Below, one piece after another: positions 2 to 63,933 of a stretch of 64,000 bases of DNA; position 1 is the first letter of the stretch; each line of letters begins with the position of its first letter. This DNA comes from a virus (Duplodnaviria > Caudoviricetes). The position numbers and the translations under genes are program-made. The notes under the pieces were generated by a model that had not been told where the DNA came from, made no database searches, and saw nothing but the letters and a program-made list of their open reading frames with translations. The stretch spans positions 128,001 through 192,000 of the IMG/VR virus record IMGVR_UViG_3300014205_000172. One strand, written 5' to 3'.

Positions 2-2950
2 TTACTCGCCGGAAGTGTGGCGCTTGAAGTTAACCTCAATGCCGTCAATTACAGCGTAGGTACCGTCTGCCTGGAACGTCATTGACTTAGCCAGACACAG
101 TCGTGCAGTTTCATCCAGCAGTGTGACGATGCTGAAGTTGTTCTCAGCGCCGCCCAGGCCACTCAAGTTAGCGCTAATCAGATCATTACCCAGTGCGTTG
201 CGCACTGCTGTTTCCAAACCATCACGCGCTACAGACACTTCCTCCAGACCTTTTACGATCTGAGCAATAGCCGATGTCTGCATAGCTGCCCGAAGGTCAT
301 TGTCAGCGTAGACTATTTTGCTGACGTACAGATCAAGCGTCAGGAACTGAGCTGTATGCAGAGTAATGCGTTTGCTATCGTTAGCCAAACACTCTACAAA
401 CTTGAGCGTATTGCGGGGCTGGAAGAACAGATCGGTTTCGTCCAATGTGGCTTTACGTACAGGTCCTAATGTATCGTTGATCCATTCAACCAGGATCTGA
501 GGAACGTCACGTTTATATTGCACGTCGTTAACGTCAGTCGCAAACCGATAGACGCCATCAAATAAGACGAGGTCCCACCAACGAATGATGTTACGGTCAG
601 ATTCCATGATTGGGTTGTTGAACTCATCGAGTATGGCAGTGCCCTTCTCATGAAGGATTACCTGACTGCCATCGGCATTGAGTTTGATATCGCCTTTTGC
701 ATGCTCGATCACCAAACTCTTATTACCTTGAGCATCCGTCTCAAGCACAGGGTATTTCCCAGAAGCATCCCGCTTGTAATAGTTAGCCTCCCACTTTGCG
801 ACCACATCGGCTTCGTATTTAAGGAACTTACGCAACCCAATCATGCTCCGGCTCATCGCCCACAGACCAGTCAGCTCATCCCCCAAGTGAAGGCGAAGCG
901 TTTCGTGGTAGACGCCAACCGCACCATCGGGCAATAAGAACTTGCCCAACTTCTGGTCAACTTCCGTGTTGCTAAGCCCATCTACTGCGTAATCTGACAC
1001 TGCCCACAGAATTGAGAAATCATTCAGCAACGGCGTCGGGTACGATCGTTCGATAGGTTCAAACATATTGAAGTTGGTGGTGATCAGCCGGTGATCATTG
1101 ACGTTGACTACATCGATGTCCCAGTTGGACTTAATGATGAACTCAAAAACACGCTCACCGCTTACCAGGATTTGTTTACCGTTGATGTAGGCCAAGTCCT
1201 TTTCGCCAGGCGGCATGAATGCCATCTGCACATGAACCTGGTCGTCACGCAGTGCTTTCCACACGTCGTTAGAAATCGACTGAATGTGGATTACGTAACC
1301 TTCTTCAGTGCGGGTGATAGACCGCGTAGTGCTTGCACTGATGGTGAGGCCGAGCGTATCGTTACTGGCGACGTAAGATCCCAATGTGATCTCAGGCGCC
1401 GATAAGAAATACGGCCGGGCTTTAAAGGTATTGCCTGCGGTATCCAATACGTAATGCAAAGGCGTGTACAGGTACGTCCCATCACTCACAGCGTTAACCA
1501 GAGCGTCACCAGAGAGCGCTAACAGTTTAGCCAAGTCAGCATCAGAGACTATGGTCAAAACGCCGTCAATGTAACGATAGAGCGTCTTAGGTGTAACTGT
1601 GAGCCGCTCACCGTTGTCGACCACAGTAGCATGGCTTAGCAAGTCAGTAATGCTCGACTTATAAGTCACGACGGCCGTGTCGATCCCAGTGGTCACTTGA
1701 CCTTTGGTGTTGTCTGGCATAGCGCGAGATGCCAGATACGTCCTGTGGCTGATATCGTCGATGTTCATCGACGCTTCAAATCCAAGGTGGGCCAGCGTTG
1801 TCCCTACTTGGGCATTGCTGATTGGAACGACCTGCGCGCCAGTGGCGTTGGTTTGAATGCGCTGACGACGTACCGCAAAGGTAGGCGCCGCCGCGCCGCC
1901 AGAAACGGTGTCGGTACTCATTACGGTGATGGTGCTCATTTGTGACAATGGAGCACTGTAGATGCTGTTGTCGTCTTGGTCTAGATCCCGCCAGTTTGCA
2001 ACGAACGAATTATCAGTCATTCCGTTCAAAGTAACGTTCAAAGGACCTTTAGTGGTGTAGACGTCCACACGGATATCATGCGTCACCAAACCCGTCGCGT
2101 AATACACGTAGGGTAATTCAATGGTAAGCTGACCATTCAGTACCGTCAGCAGCACGGTCGGGTCAGTGGCGTCAAACACTTGCTGGCTATGAGTGGTCTT
2201 AATGGCTTTCCATTGATTCTGACTGTCGTTCACAAACGCGCGAGCGTAGTAAAACGAATCAGTCAGCGGTACTGTAGTCAGCAGCACCTTAGACCCAACC
2301 AGGCTATACTTGTACGTAGTCAGCAACATCTGCTTAACAAAGGTACGGATACGAATCATCCGCACAGGACCTTTGTTGTTTTCAGTGATATTGACAGTCA
2401 CCAGTTCCCAGTCGACCTTGTTCCCTCCAAGTGCCTGAAGAGGAGAAGGTTGACTACCGTCGTATACCACATCGATCGCACCATGAGGTTTGACGATAAA
2501 GGTGATCGGGTACTGGAATGTAAACACCATGTTGTTGACGGTGATCTGTGTATACCGAGGCATAACCAAACGACGCGTTGCAGTATCACCCACCTGCACA
2601 GCGTACTTGATGATCTCAGCCTCATCCACGTAGATGTCGAACCATACGCCCGCAGGGCTGCTGAAGTTACCTTCATAATCCACATCGGAAGCATGCATGT
2701 AGACGTCTTGTTCAGTCTGCGCCGTCTCCGGATATTGACGCCGGTCAAGGTTCTGGTCTTCGGAGATAGCCGCATAGGCCGTCAGGATTGAGATCTCTTC
2801 CAGATAAGGAAAAGGCATCGAAGGGTCAAGTACCATCTCCTCACCGTCAAACATACGGTTAAGATATCCGTTGACCAACGTCGCCAACCGAGTGGGCTCG
2901 TAACGAATCGCCGCCATGTCGGCTAAAATTTCACTGCTGGTGATCGTCAT
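2..2950 (-). CDS. Large virion structural protein, phiKZ gp87-like (probable baseplate component)
   Basis: 982-aa complete ORF; size, beta-rich content and position (divergent pair before the inner-body genes) fit recalled phiKZ-like synteny. Confidence 0.65.
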   Translation of the reverse strand: MTITSSEILADMAAIRYEPTRLATLVNGYLNRMFDGEEMVLDPSMPFPYLEEISILTAYAAISEDQNLDRRQYPETAQTEQDVYMHASDVDYEGNFSSPAGVWFDIYVDEAEIIKYAVQVGDTATRRLVMPRYTQITVNNMVFTFQYPITFIVKPHGAIDVVYDGSQPSPLQALGGNKVDWELVTVNITENNKGPVRMIRIRTFVKQMLLTTYKYSLVGSKVLLTTVPLTDSFYYARAFVNDSQNQWKAIKTTHSQQVFDATDPTVLLTVLNGQLTIELPYVYYATGLVTHDIRVDVYTTKGPLNVTLNGMTDNSFVANWRDLDQDDNSIYSAPLSQMSTITVMSTDTVSGGAAAPTFAVRRQRIQTNATGAQVVPISNAQVGTTLAHLGFEASMNIDDISHRTYLASRAMPDNTKGQVTTGIDTAVVTYKSSITDLLSHATVVDNGERLTVTPKTLYRYIDGVLTIVSDADLAKLLALSGDALVNAVSDGTYLYTPLHYVLDTAGNTFKARPYFLSAPEITLGSYVASNDTLGLTISASTTRSITRTEEGYVIHIQSISNDVWKALRDDQVHVQMAFMPPGEKDLAYINGKQILVSGERVFEFIIKSNWDIDVVNVNDHRLITTNFNMFEPIERSYPTPLLNDFSILWAVSDYAVDGLSNTEVDQKLGKFLLPDGAVGVYHETLRLHLGDELTGLWAMSRSMIGLRKFLKYEADVVAKWEANYYKRDASGKYPVLETDAQGNKSLVIEHAKGDIKLNADGSQVILHEKGTAILDEFNNPIMESDRNIIRWWDLVLFDGVYRFATDVNDVQYKRDVPQILVEWINDTLGPVRKATLDETDLFFQPRNTLKFVECLANDSKRITLHTAQFLTLDLYVSKIVYADNDLRAAMQTSAIAQIVKGLEEVSVARDGLETAVRNALGNDLISANLSGLGGAENNFSIVTLLDETARLCLAKSMTFQADGTYAVIDGIEVNFKRHTSGE

Positions 2951-2953
2951 TTA

Positions 2954-4048
2954 TCAGAGCCCTTTAATCAGTTTTGCGTAATCGTCGTTAGCCACCCACC
3001 ATTCAAACTCCATGGTTTGTAGATTGATCCACGGGTAGCCATGATAGTTAGTGGCCGCAATGTACTGACGGTCCACTTTGGTGTAGACTTGTTTGCGTTT
3101 ATCGTCGGCCATGTTTGGATTGGCACGGGAGATACGCAGGTTGAATTCGTACAGCTGGATAGGGTCGTTATAACAAGCCCCTACGCAGGCAAACTGAACA
3201 GAGTAAGATTTGTTTTCAAACTCATACCCCTCTTCGCGGTTGTACGCCATCCCTGCACCTAGTGAAAGGTTGGTTGGAAATGAGGCGCCGGTGTGGAACC
3301 ATTGCTCAATCTTACGCCCCGTGATGTCGAACTTATATCGCTCGATACGGGTGAAGTAATCCATCTTGTCCTGACGACGACTCTCAGGGTGGGGGATGAT
3401 TGGCCCAGTCCGCAGATAACCAATGTAGTTAATCCAGGAGTGGAGCGCTAACCCCATGACGTTACCTTTAATGTTGTTAAAGGTGCAGGTCAAATCGAAG
3501 TAGCCATTATATTGTGAAATGCTGTCGTTCATCAACCAGACTTCTTTTGCCATACCCTCAGGTGAGCGGTAGGCGTTAAGTTGGATGTCCGGTGGTGAAC
3601 TCATGGTCTGAATCAAGTTTGTGAATAGATTCAGATAAGGCATCTGCGGATCAACCAAAGGAGACTTAGCTGGTCGCTTATCGCCCCCTGTTGGCGTCCC
3701 TCCGTAGGTGGTCGTATCGAGCATCATCCGAACCGCATATTGGTAGCTAGTCGGGTCTTGCACGAATAACGCTGCCAGATTCCGCACTGTGGCAATGTTA
3801 TCGTATGATAAATTGAGATTGGGCCTTGTAAACAATACAAGGCCCTGATCCTCACGATGCAGTGGCAGTGGCGCTAAGTTAGATAAGCGGTTAATGCCGT
3901 AGAACACATCTGCATAACGGCCGTACTCACTACCCCCACCCATGCTGCGGGAGATGTTATCCATGACCGCATATTGATCGGACAGGCCTTGTTGGTCTGC
4001 CACGTACTGCATTAGCTTCGAGTAATAAAAATCAGTTTCAGCGCCCAT
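2954..4048 (-). CDS. Virion structural protein, phiKZ gp88-like
   Basis: 364-aa ORF with FTRPNLNLS and DYFTRIERY segments typical of this family; SD GAGG upstream; synteny. Confidence 0.65.
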   Translation of the reverse strand: MGAETDFYYSKLMQYVADQQGLSDQYAVMDNISRSMGGGSEYGRYADVFYGINRLSNLAPLPLHREDQGLVLFTRPNLNLSYDNIATVRNLAALFVQDPTSYQYAVRMMLDTTTYGGTPTGGDKRPAKSPLVDPQMPYLNLFTNLIQTMSSPPDIQLNAYRSPEGMAKEVWLMNDSISQYNGYFDLTCTFNNIKGNVMGLALHSWINYIGYLRTGPIIPHPESRRQDKMDYFTRIERYKFDITGRKIEQWFHTGASFPTNLSLGAGMAYNREEGYEFENKSYSVQFACVGACYNDPIQLYEFNLRISRANPNMADDKRKQVYTKVDRQYIAATNYHGYPWINLQTMEFEWWVANDDYAKLIKGL

Positions 4049-32655: not shown

Positions 32656-33030
32656 ATGCGCAAAAGTGATACAGCTATGTTTGAAAAAGCCCAAGCCGAA
32701 CTGGTAAACAAGGATTACGCTGCGGCCATCCTCGCCTTGTATACCTGGTTCTTCAGCAAGGAAGAAACCGTTGCGGGCCGTCTACCTCTGGCTGAAAAGA
32801 TTTCCATGCTTGAACACCGCGGTATCGGTCTCAAGCTTCTTGCTGTCTTCAGCAAGAAGCGTAAATACCTGAAGACAGATCTGATGATCTATTTCGCAGA
32901 TCGCCGCGAGCCTGGCATTCTGGCTTCTCGTATCTCGCAAACCCTGCAAGATCACCTCACTAAAGATATTGGTGTCGGTATCCGCGACACAGTGGTTAAA
33001 GAGGACGATGAAGAGGACGCTGCGGCATGA
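32656..33030 (+). CDS. Hypothetical protein
   Basis: GGAG SD; 124 aa. Confidence 0.75.
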   Translation: MRKSDTAMFEKAQAELVNKDYAAAILALYTWFFSKEETVAGRLPLAEKISMLEHRGIGLKLLAVFSKKRKYLKTDLMIYFADRREPGILASRISQTLQDHLTKDIGVGIRDTVVKEDDEEDAAA

Positions 33031-61719: not shown

Positions 61720-62295
61720 ATGACGTTTGTATCATCGCGAAAGATTCCACTGATCTGTCAAACTGTTGGCGCGCTACCGGTTATCACAATGGAGAACTAT
61801 CCAAAGTGGTACGGACTTGAGGTCATCCATCCAAATGGCACTGTAGAAGATGTCGATCCAGATCTGTTGGATGAGTTGTGTGGCGATAAGCCTTTGATGG
61901 GTGACCATAACTACCATCCAGACCTATTGAAAATGGTAGCTAACAGACTTGGCGGTATTGTCGATCAGGTCTCCCTGTACACAGCCGCTGGCCGCTGGCA
62001 AGTGGAAGTTGTTGATGAGTGTAATGAATATTCATACTCGGCCATCCACCGCAATAGTTCCACTTGGGTTGAAAATACGGTCAGTGAGGAGATTGCGCAA
62101 CTCACTCTGTTTCGAATGAAGTGGCTTAGTGAAAATATGCCAGATTGCATTCAAAGCGTACGTATTCTTTACCGTCCTAATGGTACGCTTGTGCTGAATG
62201 ACGTTACAGCAACCATTTCGGATCTCGACAAGCTAGGTGTTCCTACGTCTATGTTGCAGATGTATGCCAGTAACTACTTACTAAAACCCGTATAG
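61720..62295 (+). CDS. Hypothetical protein
   Basis: GAGG SD before ATG 61720. Confidence 0.75.
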   Translation: MTFVSSRKIPLICQTVGALPVITMENYPKWYGLEVIHPNGTVEDVDPDLLDELCGDKPLMGDHNYHPDLLKMVANRLGGIVDQVSLYTAAGRWQVEVVDECNEYSYSAIHRNSSTWVENTVSEEIAQLTLFRMKWLSENMPDCIQSVRILYRPNGTLVLNDVTATISDLDKLGVPTSMLQMYASNYLLKPV

Positions 62296-62310
62296 GTATG
62301 TAGAGAAACC

Positions 62311-62456
62311 GTAATGCTCGCGACCGGTTGTAAGTGGAAGCTTAGGGCAGCTGGCCAATTGCGATCACTGAAGCCGGTGCGCGAGCGCCTTATTCTAGCT
62401 TTATCCCAGCACGATACCTGCATTAGACATCAGTAGCAGAGAAAGGCTTTTCTCAG
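62311..62456 (+). ncRNA. Putative structured RNA motif, copy A
   Basis: Stem TGCTCGCG-ACCGG / CCGGT-G-CGCGAGCG; four sequence blocks shared with copy B. Confidence 0.55.
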
Positions 62457-62472
62457 ATTACTAGGTGGCAAA

Positions 62473-62898
62473 ATGTTTGATATCGTATCTGTCGCTGACC
62501 GGACTATTCGTGAAATCTATTTGGACGAAAGTCTGAAGGATGAGGAACGAGGTGCTTTAGTCATCGTGTTGGGATCGGGTCATCGATTCGAGATTTATGA
62601 CGGCCATGGTCAAAGCTGTTGTGAACATCGTTACTTGGAAACAAGCGATGATCTTTCTGCATTAGTTGGGGAGCAGTTAGTGTCTGTGGTGTGTGAATAT
62701 CACGACAATGGATCAGAGTGGGGTGACGCTCAAACCGAAGCCGCCTCTATCCATATCCGATCAGATCGCGACTCTGTCGTGGTCGGTTGCTACAACTCGA
62801 ACAACGGCTACTACGGTGGTCTTAGTCCAGTGGTTGATGTAATCGACTCCAATGGTTTTGTGATTGTGAGAGGGGCTGACTTGCAACAACCCGGTTAA
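62473..62898 (+). CDS. Conserved phage protein (SCCE...NNGYYG motif)
   Basis: AGGTGG SD; 141 aa. Confidence 0.8.
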   Translation: MFDIVSVADRTIREIYLDESLKDEERGALVIVLGSGHRFEIYDGHGQSCCEHRYLETSDDLSALVGEQLVSVVCEYHDNGSEWGDAQTEAASIHIRSDRDSVVVGCYNSNNGYYGGLSPVVDVIDSNGFVIVRGADLQQPG

Positions 62899-62905
62899 TG
62901 CGGAC

Positions 62906-62921
62906 CGGCGCTTCGGCGCCG
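62906..62921 (+). terminator. UUCG hairpin
   Basis: CGGCGC-TTCG-GCGCCG. Confidence 0.55.
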
Positions 62922-62933
62922 ACTTATTCAAGT

Positions 62934-63184
62934 GTTATGCCTGCGACCCACTAAGTAATTTCCGCCGTGCCGAAGCCTCGGGCGGGGGTGAATAGGTGAG
63001 TGTCGCGGGCGCCTAATCTGCTGCAGCAGATACTGTACTGGTACCGTATTGTGATTGTCACAGCCCCTCGTAAGGGTGAATAGGCCATATAGACATCAGG
63101 ATGATGGAAAAGACCTCGCAGACGGATGGAACATCAGTGCAGTAGCCTTTCCCATACTGGCCTGCTTCGGCAGGTCTTTATGCT
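62934..63184 (+). ncRNA. Putative structured RNA motif, copy B (longer), ending in a UUCG hairpin
   Basis: Stem TGCCTGCGAC/GTCGCGGGCG with G-U pairs on + strand; several extra hairpins; final GGCCTGC-TTCG-GCAGGTC-TTT. Confidence 0.6.
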
Positions 63185-63234
63185 GTAAGTATCAACTTAG
63201 ACATCTGCTTATATATCCACCAAGGGATCTTATC

Positions 63235-63933
63235 ATGAAATTTGGCTCTTATGACTTTAAACAAGTCTGTCGCAATGAAGTAGAGTCACTGCCAGAAAGT
63301 AGCGGGTTGGTACTTATCCGTGATCGGTCCGATCATCGCTTTGACGTACTCTGCGCCAATAGCTTACGGCGTCGTCTGTATCAGGCAGTTAATGGAGAAG
63401 TGGGTTCGCTTATTAAAGCACGTTATCCCATCTCTCCTGAAGATCACGTTGAGTTCTTCTACTGCTCGCTTGGGTATGTCGCTAACCTGAATGTCCACAA
63501 GTACCGGCTGCGTATGCTCCTTAAAGGCAAGCTTGTTACTCAGAACACTCATGGTACTGACGGTCGTGGTTACAAGATCAACTTGTTTACCTACCCTGAA
63601 ACGAGTGAGTACTTCATCTCGATCCAAACCATGGCGTCCAGGGAAGATCCATTGATGCGTCTGTACCGGATGCTCAATGGGAAGATTAAACAGACGCACG
63701 TAACAGGCAATCCTATTGTAATGAACTTCTCGCGAAAGCGCGGTCCCTTCAATGAGACCAACTCTTTCATTCATGAACTCCGCAAGGCTGACATCCCAAC
63801 TCTTAACGAAGCAAAACAAGCTGCACGAGAATTAGCACTAGAACTTGGCACTCAATATTTGCTCACAGCCAATGTGGTTGATCGGGCACAGTGGAAACAT
63901 CCCGGATGGGATAAGGTCGCAAAACATGCTTGA
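63235..63933 (+). CDS. Protein with degenerate GIY-YIG-like domain(s)
   Basis: LPESSGLVLIRD..A.SLRRRL resembles the UvrC-type GIY-YIG N-terminus without the tyrosines; AAGGGA SD. Confidence 0.55.
   Translation: MKFGSYDFKQVCRNEVESLPESSGLVLIRDRSDHRFDVLCANSLRRRLYQAVNGEVGSLIKARYPISPEDHVEFFYCSLGYVANLNVHKYRLRMLLKGKLVTQNTHGTDGRGYKINLFTYPETSEYFISIQTMASREDPLMRLYRMLNGKIKQTHVTGNPIVMNFSRKRGPFNETNSFIHELRKADIPTLNEAKQAARELALELGTQYLLTANVVDRAQWKHPGWDKVAKHA

Follow-up and report, generated by a model that had tools for sequence, protein, structure and literature searches.

What kind of element occupies the intergenic gaps on either side of a gene for a DUF7448 protein near the end of a 64,000-nucleotide (nt) stretch of phage DNA, where two similar sequences, copies A and B, face each other across the gene? 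The stretch, referred to here as the window, comprises bases 128001-192000 of a 237-kb IMG/VR record (IMGVR_UViG_3300014205_000172), representing a genome that is ~95% complete. The gene directly upstream of the locus is a homologue of phiKZ gp212, and therefore the phage is a distant phiKZ-like jumbo phage. A preliminary description, based on the window alone, had read A and B as a structured non-coding RNA assembled from four ordered sequence blocks and had suggested a small RNA (sRNA), ribozyme or protein decoy. From sequence comparison with related phages, we conclude that A and B are paralogous hairpin RNAs maintained by compensatory evolution. The relatives, designated by L numbers, include L048, an IMG/VR contig with a nucleotide identity to this phage of ~91%, and Logan, ENA and JGI contigs with homologues of the 232-amino-acid (aa) protein gene that lies downstream of hairpin B; this protein is ~90% identical in close relatives and 54-58% identical in distant ones.

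All four pairs of blocks are present, and in the 237-kb genome they co-occur at these two sites only. Blocks 1 and 2 had been proposed to pair into a stem with compensatory changes. They form a long stem in both copies, and the homologues extend the covariation. The resulting hairpin unit is ~72 nt long and occurs twice per genome (Table 1), with long, irregular stems of about 30 bp that in the B hairpin of L255 are almost perfectly paired. The interior of the stem is the most variable part and the ends are constant. Hairpin A is capped by an apical hairpin, GGC-AGCUG-GCC, and hairpin B by an apical loop region of 12-14 nt, AUGCCGAAGNNN, which contains the invariant loop UGCCGAAG at 62968-62975. 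Folded singly, the sequences have energies that are not exceptional (z about -1.5), and the structural case therefore rests on comparison with other sequences.

That comparison was made on a MAFFT alignment of 10 B-type hairpins (alignment A3), which was not fitted to a structure and yielded 16 consensus pairs. Standard pairs fill 96.1% of the paired cells, compared with 35-51% after displacement of the 3′ partners by 1-3 columns. Changes on both sides were found in 8 of the 16 pairs, one position shows five pair types (U-G, G-C, C-G, A-U and G-U), and the covariation score was reached by none of 500 column shuffles. The loop UGCCGAAG is unchanged in 10/10 B sequences, while its closing stem covaries. 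Compensatory changes are found even against the closest relatives, such as A-U to G-C and C-G to U-A in B compared with L048. For the four A-type sequences (A5), 4 of 22 pairs carry compensatory double changes, and when A and B are aligned jointly (A6), 97.4% of cells are paired and 30 are double-change cells. Alignment of the whole of copy A with the whole of copy B by MAFFT was uninformative. A covariance model built from B sequences alone (R1) finds all four A hairpins at 17-22.5 bits; in this phage it scores hairpin A at 22.5 bits (E 0.001-0.003) and hairpin B at 86 bits. Because a B-only model recovers the A hairpins, A and B are homologous. Covariation among the homologues contradicts one outcome that the preliminary description had named as refuting, a mere decayed DNA duplication.

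Of 193 paired cells, about 31 hold G-U or U-G and only about 5 fail to pair. The frequency of G-U pairs indicates that the fold is restricted to the + strand, on which the flanking genes also lie, and that it is a fold of RNA, in agreement with the strand first proposed. No Rfam 15 family accounts for the hairpins in a gathering-score scan of the 64-kb window or in E≤10 scans of the region and its relatives, where tRNAs were matched in the relatives only. Together with the covariation, the empty Rfam scan upholds the view of a structured non-coding RNA outside known families.

The hairpin family is confined to one small clade. Model R1 and a second model, R2, have no match in the genomes of phiKZ, 201phi2-1 and T4, and blastn with the 941-nt region and with L255 3640-4000 returned no match among 50,697 GenBank phages. 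Three exact-pattern scans of IMG/VR and, among the matches listed, one of metagenome contigs together gave two known relatives and otherwise chance matches. Pattern and protein-guided scans recover this clade only. Within the window, a weak and partial third model match at 32723-32780 (- strand; 20-21 bits, E about 0.01) lies antisense inside an open reading frame (ORF) at 32656-33030 and is probably due to chance. Two coding readings were also rejected: the ORF starting at the ATG of block 1 ranges from 5 to 40 codons among copies, and an antisense 45-aa ORF (62951-63088) has 5 synonymous against 6-7 non-synonymous codon changes and is impossible in distant relatives that lack the domain.

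The relatives also show what the locus is. In L250, L252, L258, L048, L260 and L261 the gap 5′ of the 232-aa gene holds 1-5 tRNA genes plus tRNA-like RNAs (Tyr, Gln, Asn, Ser and one more tRNA in L250, two in L252 and Asn in L258); no recognized tRNA was found in the gaps of L253 and L255. Several tRNA-like and other structured RNAs are also present in the relatives' gaps, and a conserved terminator, GGYCUGCUYCGGCAGGYC-UUUAUGC, closes every gap examined. Given the tRNAs, the structured RNAs and the shared terminator, the locus is the tRNA and stable-RNA cluster of the clade. The B-type hairpin is the last element before the terminator in every relative, followed in L257 and L258 by only ~12 A/U-rich nt. 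ARAGORN found no tRNA genes in this phage, either in the window or in the whole 237-kb genome, and the homologous locus in relatives carries one to five or more. The loss is recent, because L261, whose 232-aa protein is 90% identical, still has a tRNA. Both hairpins are intact in every genome examined. The copies had been described as flanking one gene, and the DUF7448 gene does lie between them, but A and B are the first and last structured units of a degraded tRNA and stable-RNA cluster with a DUF7448 insertion.

The DUF7448 gene is present at the locus in L261 and absent from L048, L260 and L262. It is inserted cargo in the RNA cluster and stands outside the RNA family. Between A and B, L260 and L262 have a spacer and an odd tRNA-like gene; L261 has the spacer and the odd tRNA-like gene, followed by the leader, the DUF7448 gene and a terminator; this phage has the leader, gene and terminator only; and L048 has a longer RNA (the X element) and the odd tRNA-like gene. 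In L261 the leader, which in the window holds blocks 3 and 4, sits behind a 75-nt spacer and the tRNA-like gene, ~170 nt from hairpin A; the deletion that has joined it to hairpin A in the window has its junction at 62399/62400. Since blocks 3 and 4 stand apart from hairpin A in L261, the window's copy A is a composite made by deletion. Their best local alignment with the tail of B, CAT-TAGACATCAG, is marginal (p about 0.02 against dinucleotide shuffles). What is conserved is the single hairpin of blocks 1 and 2, in place of the proposed four-block, two-domain RNA. Within the predicted fold of the leader, CAUCAGUAG can pair with the Shine-Dalgarno region UUACUAGGUG.

We next considered how the hairpins might be processed. 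Their ends, A(-2) U(-1) | G(+1)...C(72)-R-C-C-U, are invariant in all 14 hairpins (10 B-type and 4 A-type), each with a G(+1):C(72) closing pair followed by R73-C74-C75. Bacterial RNase P recognizes its substrates at these same positions: it pairs R73-C74-C75 with the L15 loop, favors U at -1 and makes contact with A(-2) (PMC4919922). The E. coli ffs gene for 4.5S RNA reads CAAU|GGGGG...CCCCC-ACCC, which is the same end design, and the tRNA-Asn gene of L250 has the identical leader, UGUAAU|. Processing by RNase P is ranked first because the ends match the RNase P determinants, the pre-4.5S design and the tRNA-Asn leader. We therefore favor, tentatively, the reading that A and B may be RNase P-processed hairpin RNAs or punctuation marks.

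Transcription signals were compared with those of phiKZ, in which middle promoters have AAanTTACc about 24 nt upstream of the start and late promoters have TATG with G as the start, although TATG alone is insufficient as a phiKZ promoter (PMC4666361). The candidate middle-type promoter upstream of A (Table 1) predicts a likely start at G62300, 16 nt before the hairpin. The same geometry, in which the C of TTAC and the G of TATG lie 19 nt apart, is found in L250, L252, L255 and L258 as AAAAAGTTAC...TATATG, which in the distant relatives stands right after the upstream gene. In the sub-clade of this phage, a TATG supplies its G as the first base of B (G62939), and terminators stand on both sides of B, which may therefore also be transcribed separately as an RNA of about 240 nt.

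In the proposed RNase P mechanism, the cluster would be transcribed from the middle-type promoter ~16 nt upstream of A, and B may start at its own TATG. Host RNase P would cut between U(-1) and G(+1) (62315|62316 and 62938|62939), as it does in pre-4.5S RNA, pre-tmRNA and the P1/P7 C4 RNA, and the cut would release tRNA-sized hairpin RNAs. In the relatives the same cut would detach tRNAs from the 5′ leader and the 3′ terminator and would thereby serve as punctuation. The loop of B, UGCCGAAG, would be a likely functional or contact site, and the sole complementary site nearby is CUUCGGCA in the terminator.

Several observations weigh against RNase P processing. Position 76 is U in 14/14 hairpins and not the A of CCA; E. 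coli 4.5S RNA has C at this position, so that a known substrate accepts a pyrimidine there. Pairing of U(-1) with R73 is possible and might displace or reduce cleavage. Both hairpins are kept in a phage without any tRNA, and therefore pure tRNA processing cannot be the whole story here. A long, near-perfect stem such as that of L255 (27 bp) would be a suitable substrate for RNase III too. The complementarity between loop and terminator shows no covariation, and in L253 (UCCG) it has one mismatch. This genome has no homologue of Dip (gp37), the RNase E inhibitor of phiKZ, and in its absence we set aside Dip-type inhibition of RNase E as a rationale for dependence on RNase P. Finally, the family is known from about ten distinct sequences of one clade.

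It is conceivable, though unlikely, that the hairpins are instead signals for a double-strand-specific nuclease of the RNase III type, or protective 5′ and 3′ hairpins, and that no discrete hairpin RNA is made. Their length and irregularity, including the nearly perfect B stem of L255, would fit such a role, as would their position at both ends of a polycistronic stable-RNA unit, and in distant relatives the leader has a different ~75-nt covarying hairpin, which suggests that any long hairpin serves. However, the invariant single-stranded AU|G and RCCU flanks and the 8-nt loop are foreign to RNase III sites, and the stem interior, which is the part that RNase III would read, varies most.

A second alternative, which we regard as rather unlikely, is that hairpin B and its tail to the terminator (~240 nt) form a regulatory RNA acting in trans or in cis, or a protein decoy, by means of UGCCGAAG. 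The terminator segment CUUCGGCA (63165-63172) is the exact complement of the apical loop of B, and the terminator is the sole intergenic CTTCGGCA within a hairpin on the + strand of the genome. Pairing of the two could modulate read-through into the 232-aa gene, or the loop could bind a phage or host protein. A loop that is invariant while its closing stem covaries, an exact 8-nt complement in an adjacent conserved terminator, the same gene always downstream, and a TATG of its own between two terminators, from which B could be transcribed independently, are all consistent with this idea. Nevertheless, loop and terminator do not covary (with the UCCG mismatch in L253), a hairpin with a UUCG tetraloop is ill suited to such pairing, hairpin A is without UGCCGAAG, no set of target sites was found elsewhere in the genome, and TATG by itself is not enough for a phiKZ promoter. 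A related idea, which appears quite doubtful, is that a tRNA-sized hairpin RNA borrows tRNA ends (AU|G...RCCU) for maturation by RNase P and that its loop UGCCGAAG acts as a decoy or guide. Its targets could be a host factor that reads tRNA- or 4.5S-like ends, a tRNA-targeting defense nuclease or control of the adjacent terminator. If this were true, retention of the hairpins without tRNAs would reflect an independent function and not tRNA processing.

It also seems improbable that the hairpins are a decaying duplication, or what remains of a lost tRNA cluster, and no longer serve a function in this phage. The genome has no tRNA, copy A has been fused to a foreign leader by deletion, and the close relatives, with a nucleotide identity of about 91%, are too alike for selection to be demonstrated within this lineage by itself; yet compensatory changes separate even the closest relatives, and both hairpins remain intact in all genomes examined.

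Lastly, we considered the 232-aa protein gene next to the cluster and the possibility of a DNA-level element. The protein has no Pfam or PHROG match. In its AlphaFold model, residues 1-100 (predicted local distance difference test, pLDDT, about 90) resemble GIY-YIG domains (the N-terminal domain of UvrC, and I-TevI), with a Foldseek probability of 0.99, an E of 0.06 and a target-normalized template-modeling (TM) score of about 0.6. The GIY and YIG tyrosines are absent, and an RRR motif is invariant. It is very improbable that A and B are DNA repeats serving as boundary or recombination sites of a hypervariable cassette region or as targets of the neighboring GIY-YIG-like protein: the A-B content does differ among close relatives, and its breakpoints fall directly at the base of A on the 3′ side and in the flank of B on the 5′ side, L255 carries an inserted HNH gene, the downstream protein has a GIY-YIG-like fold, and the T4 tRNA cluster contains the GIY-YIG endonuclease gene segB, but the opposite strand would have A-C mismatches in place of the ~31 G-U pairs, the double changes preserve a single-strand fold, only two copies exist per genome, and the GIY-YIG-like protein is without both signature tyrosines and is syntenic in all relatives, unlike a mobile endonuclease. 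A role as recombination anchor is compatible with RNA function, and the hairpins may act as anchors for cassette exchange.

Table 1. Features of the hairpin locus, in window coordinates
Feature	Position	Strand	Details
Candidate phiKZ middle-type promoter	62278-62300	+	TTAC 62278-62281, 15-nt spacer, TATG 62297-62300; predicted from phiKZ motifs
Hairpin A	62314-62390	+	A(-2)U(-1) 62314-62315; stem-loop G62316-C62386; 3′ tail G-C-C-U 62387-62390; from the fold
DUF7448 cassette leader (blocks 3 and 4 of the preliminary description)	62391-62472	+	Same leader in L261
DUF7448 protein gene, 141 aa	62473-62898	+	Pfam PF24240, E 1.4e-13
Terminator-like hairpin	62906-62928	+	CGGCGC-UUCG-GCGCCG then ACUUAUU; after the DUF7448 gene; read from the sequence; one of the genome's hairpins with a UUCG loop
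Hairpin B	62936-63014	+	TATG 62936-62939; A(-2)U(-1) 62937-62938; stem-loop G62939-C63010; tail G-C-C-U 63011-63014; from the fold
Small hairpin P2	63016-63031	+	AUCUGC-UGCA-GCAGAU; first pair A-U to U-A in L260, L261 and L262; present in L255
Sub-clade domain closed by 11-bp long-range helix	63032-63143	+	63032-63042 with 63133-63143; RNAalifold, 5 close relatives
Cluster terminator	63159-63181	+	GGCCUGC-UUCG-GCAGGUC + UUUAU; terminator scan; conserved in all relatives
Conserved 232-aa protein gene	63235-63933		Adjoins the RNA cluster in all relatives

Downstream of hairpin B, the preliminary description had closed a second domain by pairing TCTR with TAGA. This pairing competes with the better-supported hairpin P2 (AUCUGC/GCAGAU), and a further hairpin proposed in copy B, GTGA/TCAC, is broken in four relatives (GCGA/TTAC), all of which keep an alternative helix, UGYGA:UCGCA. 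Comparison of the relatives indicates that the long tail of B (63018-63145) is specific to the sub-clade of this phage, the domain within it being absent from L255, L257 and L258. Its predicted 11-bp closing helix is invariant among the close relatives; the inner helices, which are predicted and weakly tested, show one double change and one C-G to U-G. We also considered descent of the B-tail domain or of blocks 3 and 4 from the X element, and rejected it as the X-element model (R3) finds its own training sequences only. At the cluster terminator, the TATG at 63179-63182 may start the transcript of the next gene. Terminators with UUCG loops directly followed by (T)TTATGC occur at genome positions 81177, 98208, 191161 (window 63161) and 217730, which suggests that they are terminator-plus-TATG promoter units at gene boundaries.

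Several further RNAs were seen at the relatives' loci. The odd tRNA-like gene (L048 3603-3689, L261 1341-1426, L260 3604-3687, L250 3333-3416 and L252 3453-3538) scores 39-48 bits with the Rfam tRNA model. It has an extended anticodon stem with a 5-nt loop, UCGCU (GAGGUCGCUCCUC), and no normal anticodon; ARAGORN calls it mostly as tRNA-???, as tRNA-Ser in L252 and not at all in L250. It is missing from this phage through recent deletion. The X element is a multi-helix RNA of ~128 nt (L253 2354-2481, L048 3476-3604, L252 and L250 3770-3901) with compensatory double changes in 8 of 27 pairs (alignment A8, model R3). It precedes hairpin B in some phages and follows it in others, and it was not found in the window. 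A tRNA-shaped RNA of ~135 nt (L255 about 3647-3793, L258 about 3692-3822, L253 about 2062-2200) has an acceptor stem, a D-arm-like hairpin, a T arm (GAGAGUUCGAAUCUCUC) and an encoded CCA. In place of the anticodon arm it carries an ~80-nt insert that includes GGC-ACAGCUG-GCC, a sequence similar to the apex of hairpin A. This tRNA-shaped RNA recalls T4 rnaC and is not recognized by Rfam. Another tRNA-like RNA of ~150 nt (L250 about 2873-3026, L253 about 2205-2350), with paired ends GGAGAAGCG...CGCUUCUCC and a T arm (GCGAGUUCGAAUCUCGC), received no ARAGORN or Rfam call. At about 2955-3653 of L255, a tRNA-Asn-like 5′ half ends after the anticodon stem and is followed by an HNH-like gene at 3048-3653; its intact counterpart is L258 3598-3673, and it looks from the sequence as though the HNH endonuclease gene had been inserted into the tRNA cluster. 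Between promoter and first tRNA, L258 (3515-3590) and L255 (2877-2952) have a different leader hairpin of ~75 nt, which corresponds in position to hairpin A; four compensatory double changes distinguish its L258 and L255 versions (A9).

Stable RNAs of unassigned function have been known in phage tRNA clusters since T4, and to our knowledge almost none of them has been catalogued. The locus described here provides a covariation-supported hairpin family with a candidate maturation signal, namely RNase P determinants at both ends, and the genomes form a natural series: the tRNAs around the hairpins are retained in some, exchanged in others and wholly absent from others again. Should RNase P cut at these sites, nucleus-forming jumbo phages would punctuate non-coding transcripts by means of the host tRNA machinery.

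Comparison with known RNA classes sets several of them apart. The region 62200-63300 has no Rfam tRNA match (RF00005) at E≤10, and a single hairpin is folded in place of a cloverleaf. The ribozyme suggestion of the preliminary description found no backing, as no ribozyme or intron core was matched at gathering score in the 64-kb window or at E≤10 in 62200-63300 or L048 3250-4010, and there is no conserved multi-helix core. With two copies only and a strand-asymmetric G-U pattern, the hairpins also differ from T4-type promoter-stem-loop repeats. The RNase III hairpins of the T7 early transcript and of rRNA operons are likewise repeated, irregular long hairpins that punctuate a polycistronic transcript; in contrast to these, the single-stranded flanks and the apical loop are conserved in the phage hairpins, and the stem varies.

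Closer likenesses are found among RNAs of phage tRNA transcripts. In 201phi2-1, a tRNA is made from a middle-promoter transcript with a leader-derived sRNA upstream (PMC11512511). This short sRNA comes from the 5′ leader, the same position as hairpin A, and R2 has no match anywhere in the 201phi2-1 genome. Species 1 and 2 of T4 (rnaC and rnaD) are likewise structured last units of a phage tRNA cluster with no assigned function, and endonuclease genes lie in both clusters (segB in T4, HNH or GIY-YIG-like here). However, rnaC folds with a tRNA T arm and acceptor and the hairpins have neither, no match was found by R1 in the T4 tRNA region or by R2 in the whole T4 genome, and the closer T4-like analogue in the relatives is a separate tRNA-shaped "T element". 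The C4 antisense RNA of P1/P7 is tRNA-sized and matured by RNase P according to Hartmann et al. 1995, as cited in PMC4919922. Going by that secondary account, it is a phage-encoded stem-loop of ~75 nt with a 5′ end generated by RNase P and with active loops, which is the design proposed here for the hairpins. It differs in context, which is an immunity region for C4 and a tRNA cluster for the hairpins; Rfam gave no match to C4, and the only structured site complementary to the loop is the adjacent terminator.

Among the natural substrates of RNase P, the E. coli pre-4.5S RNA (ffs) is likewise a long irregular hairpin. The base of ffs has A-U|G on the 5′ side and R-C-C-pyrimidine on the 3′ side, compared with (U/C)AAU|GC...GC-RCCU in the phage hairpins. 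The phage hairpin is 72 nt long and ffs 114 nt, and the phage loop UGCCGAAG is unrelated to the tetraloop region of the signal recognition particle (SRP) RNA. The domain IV motif of bacterial small SRP RNA (RF00169), with its GNRA-type tetraloop and its conserved symmetric and asymmetric loops, is lacking, and there was no Rfam match to this family at E≤10. Judged by their sequences, the hairpins appear to belong with the stable RNAs of phage tRNA clusters and with the hairpin substrates of RNase P, among which they would constitute a new family.

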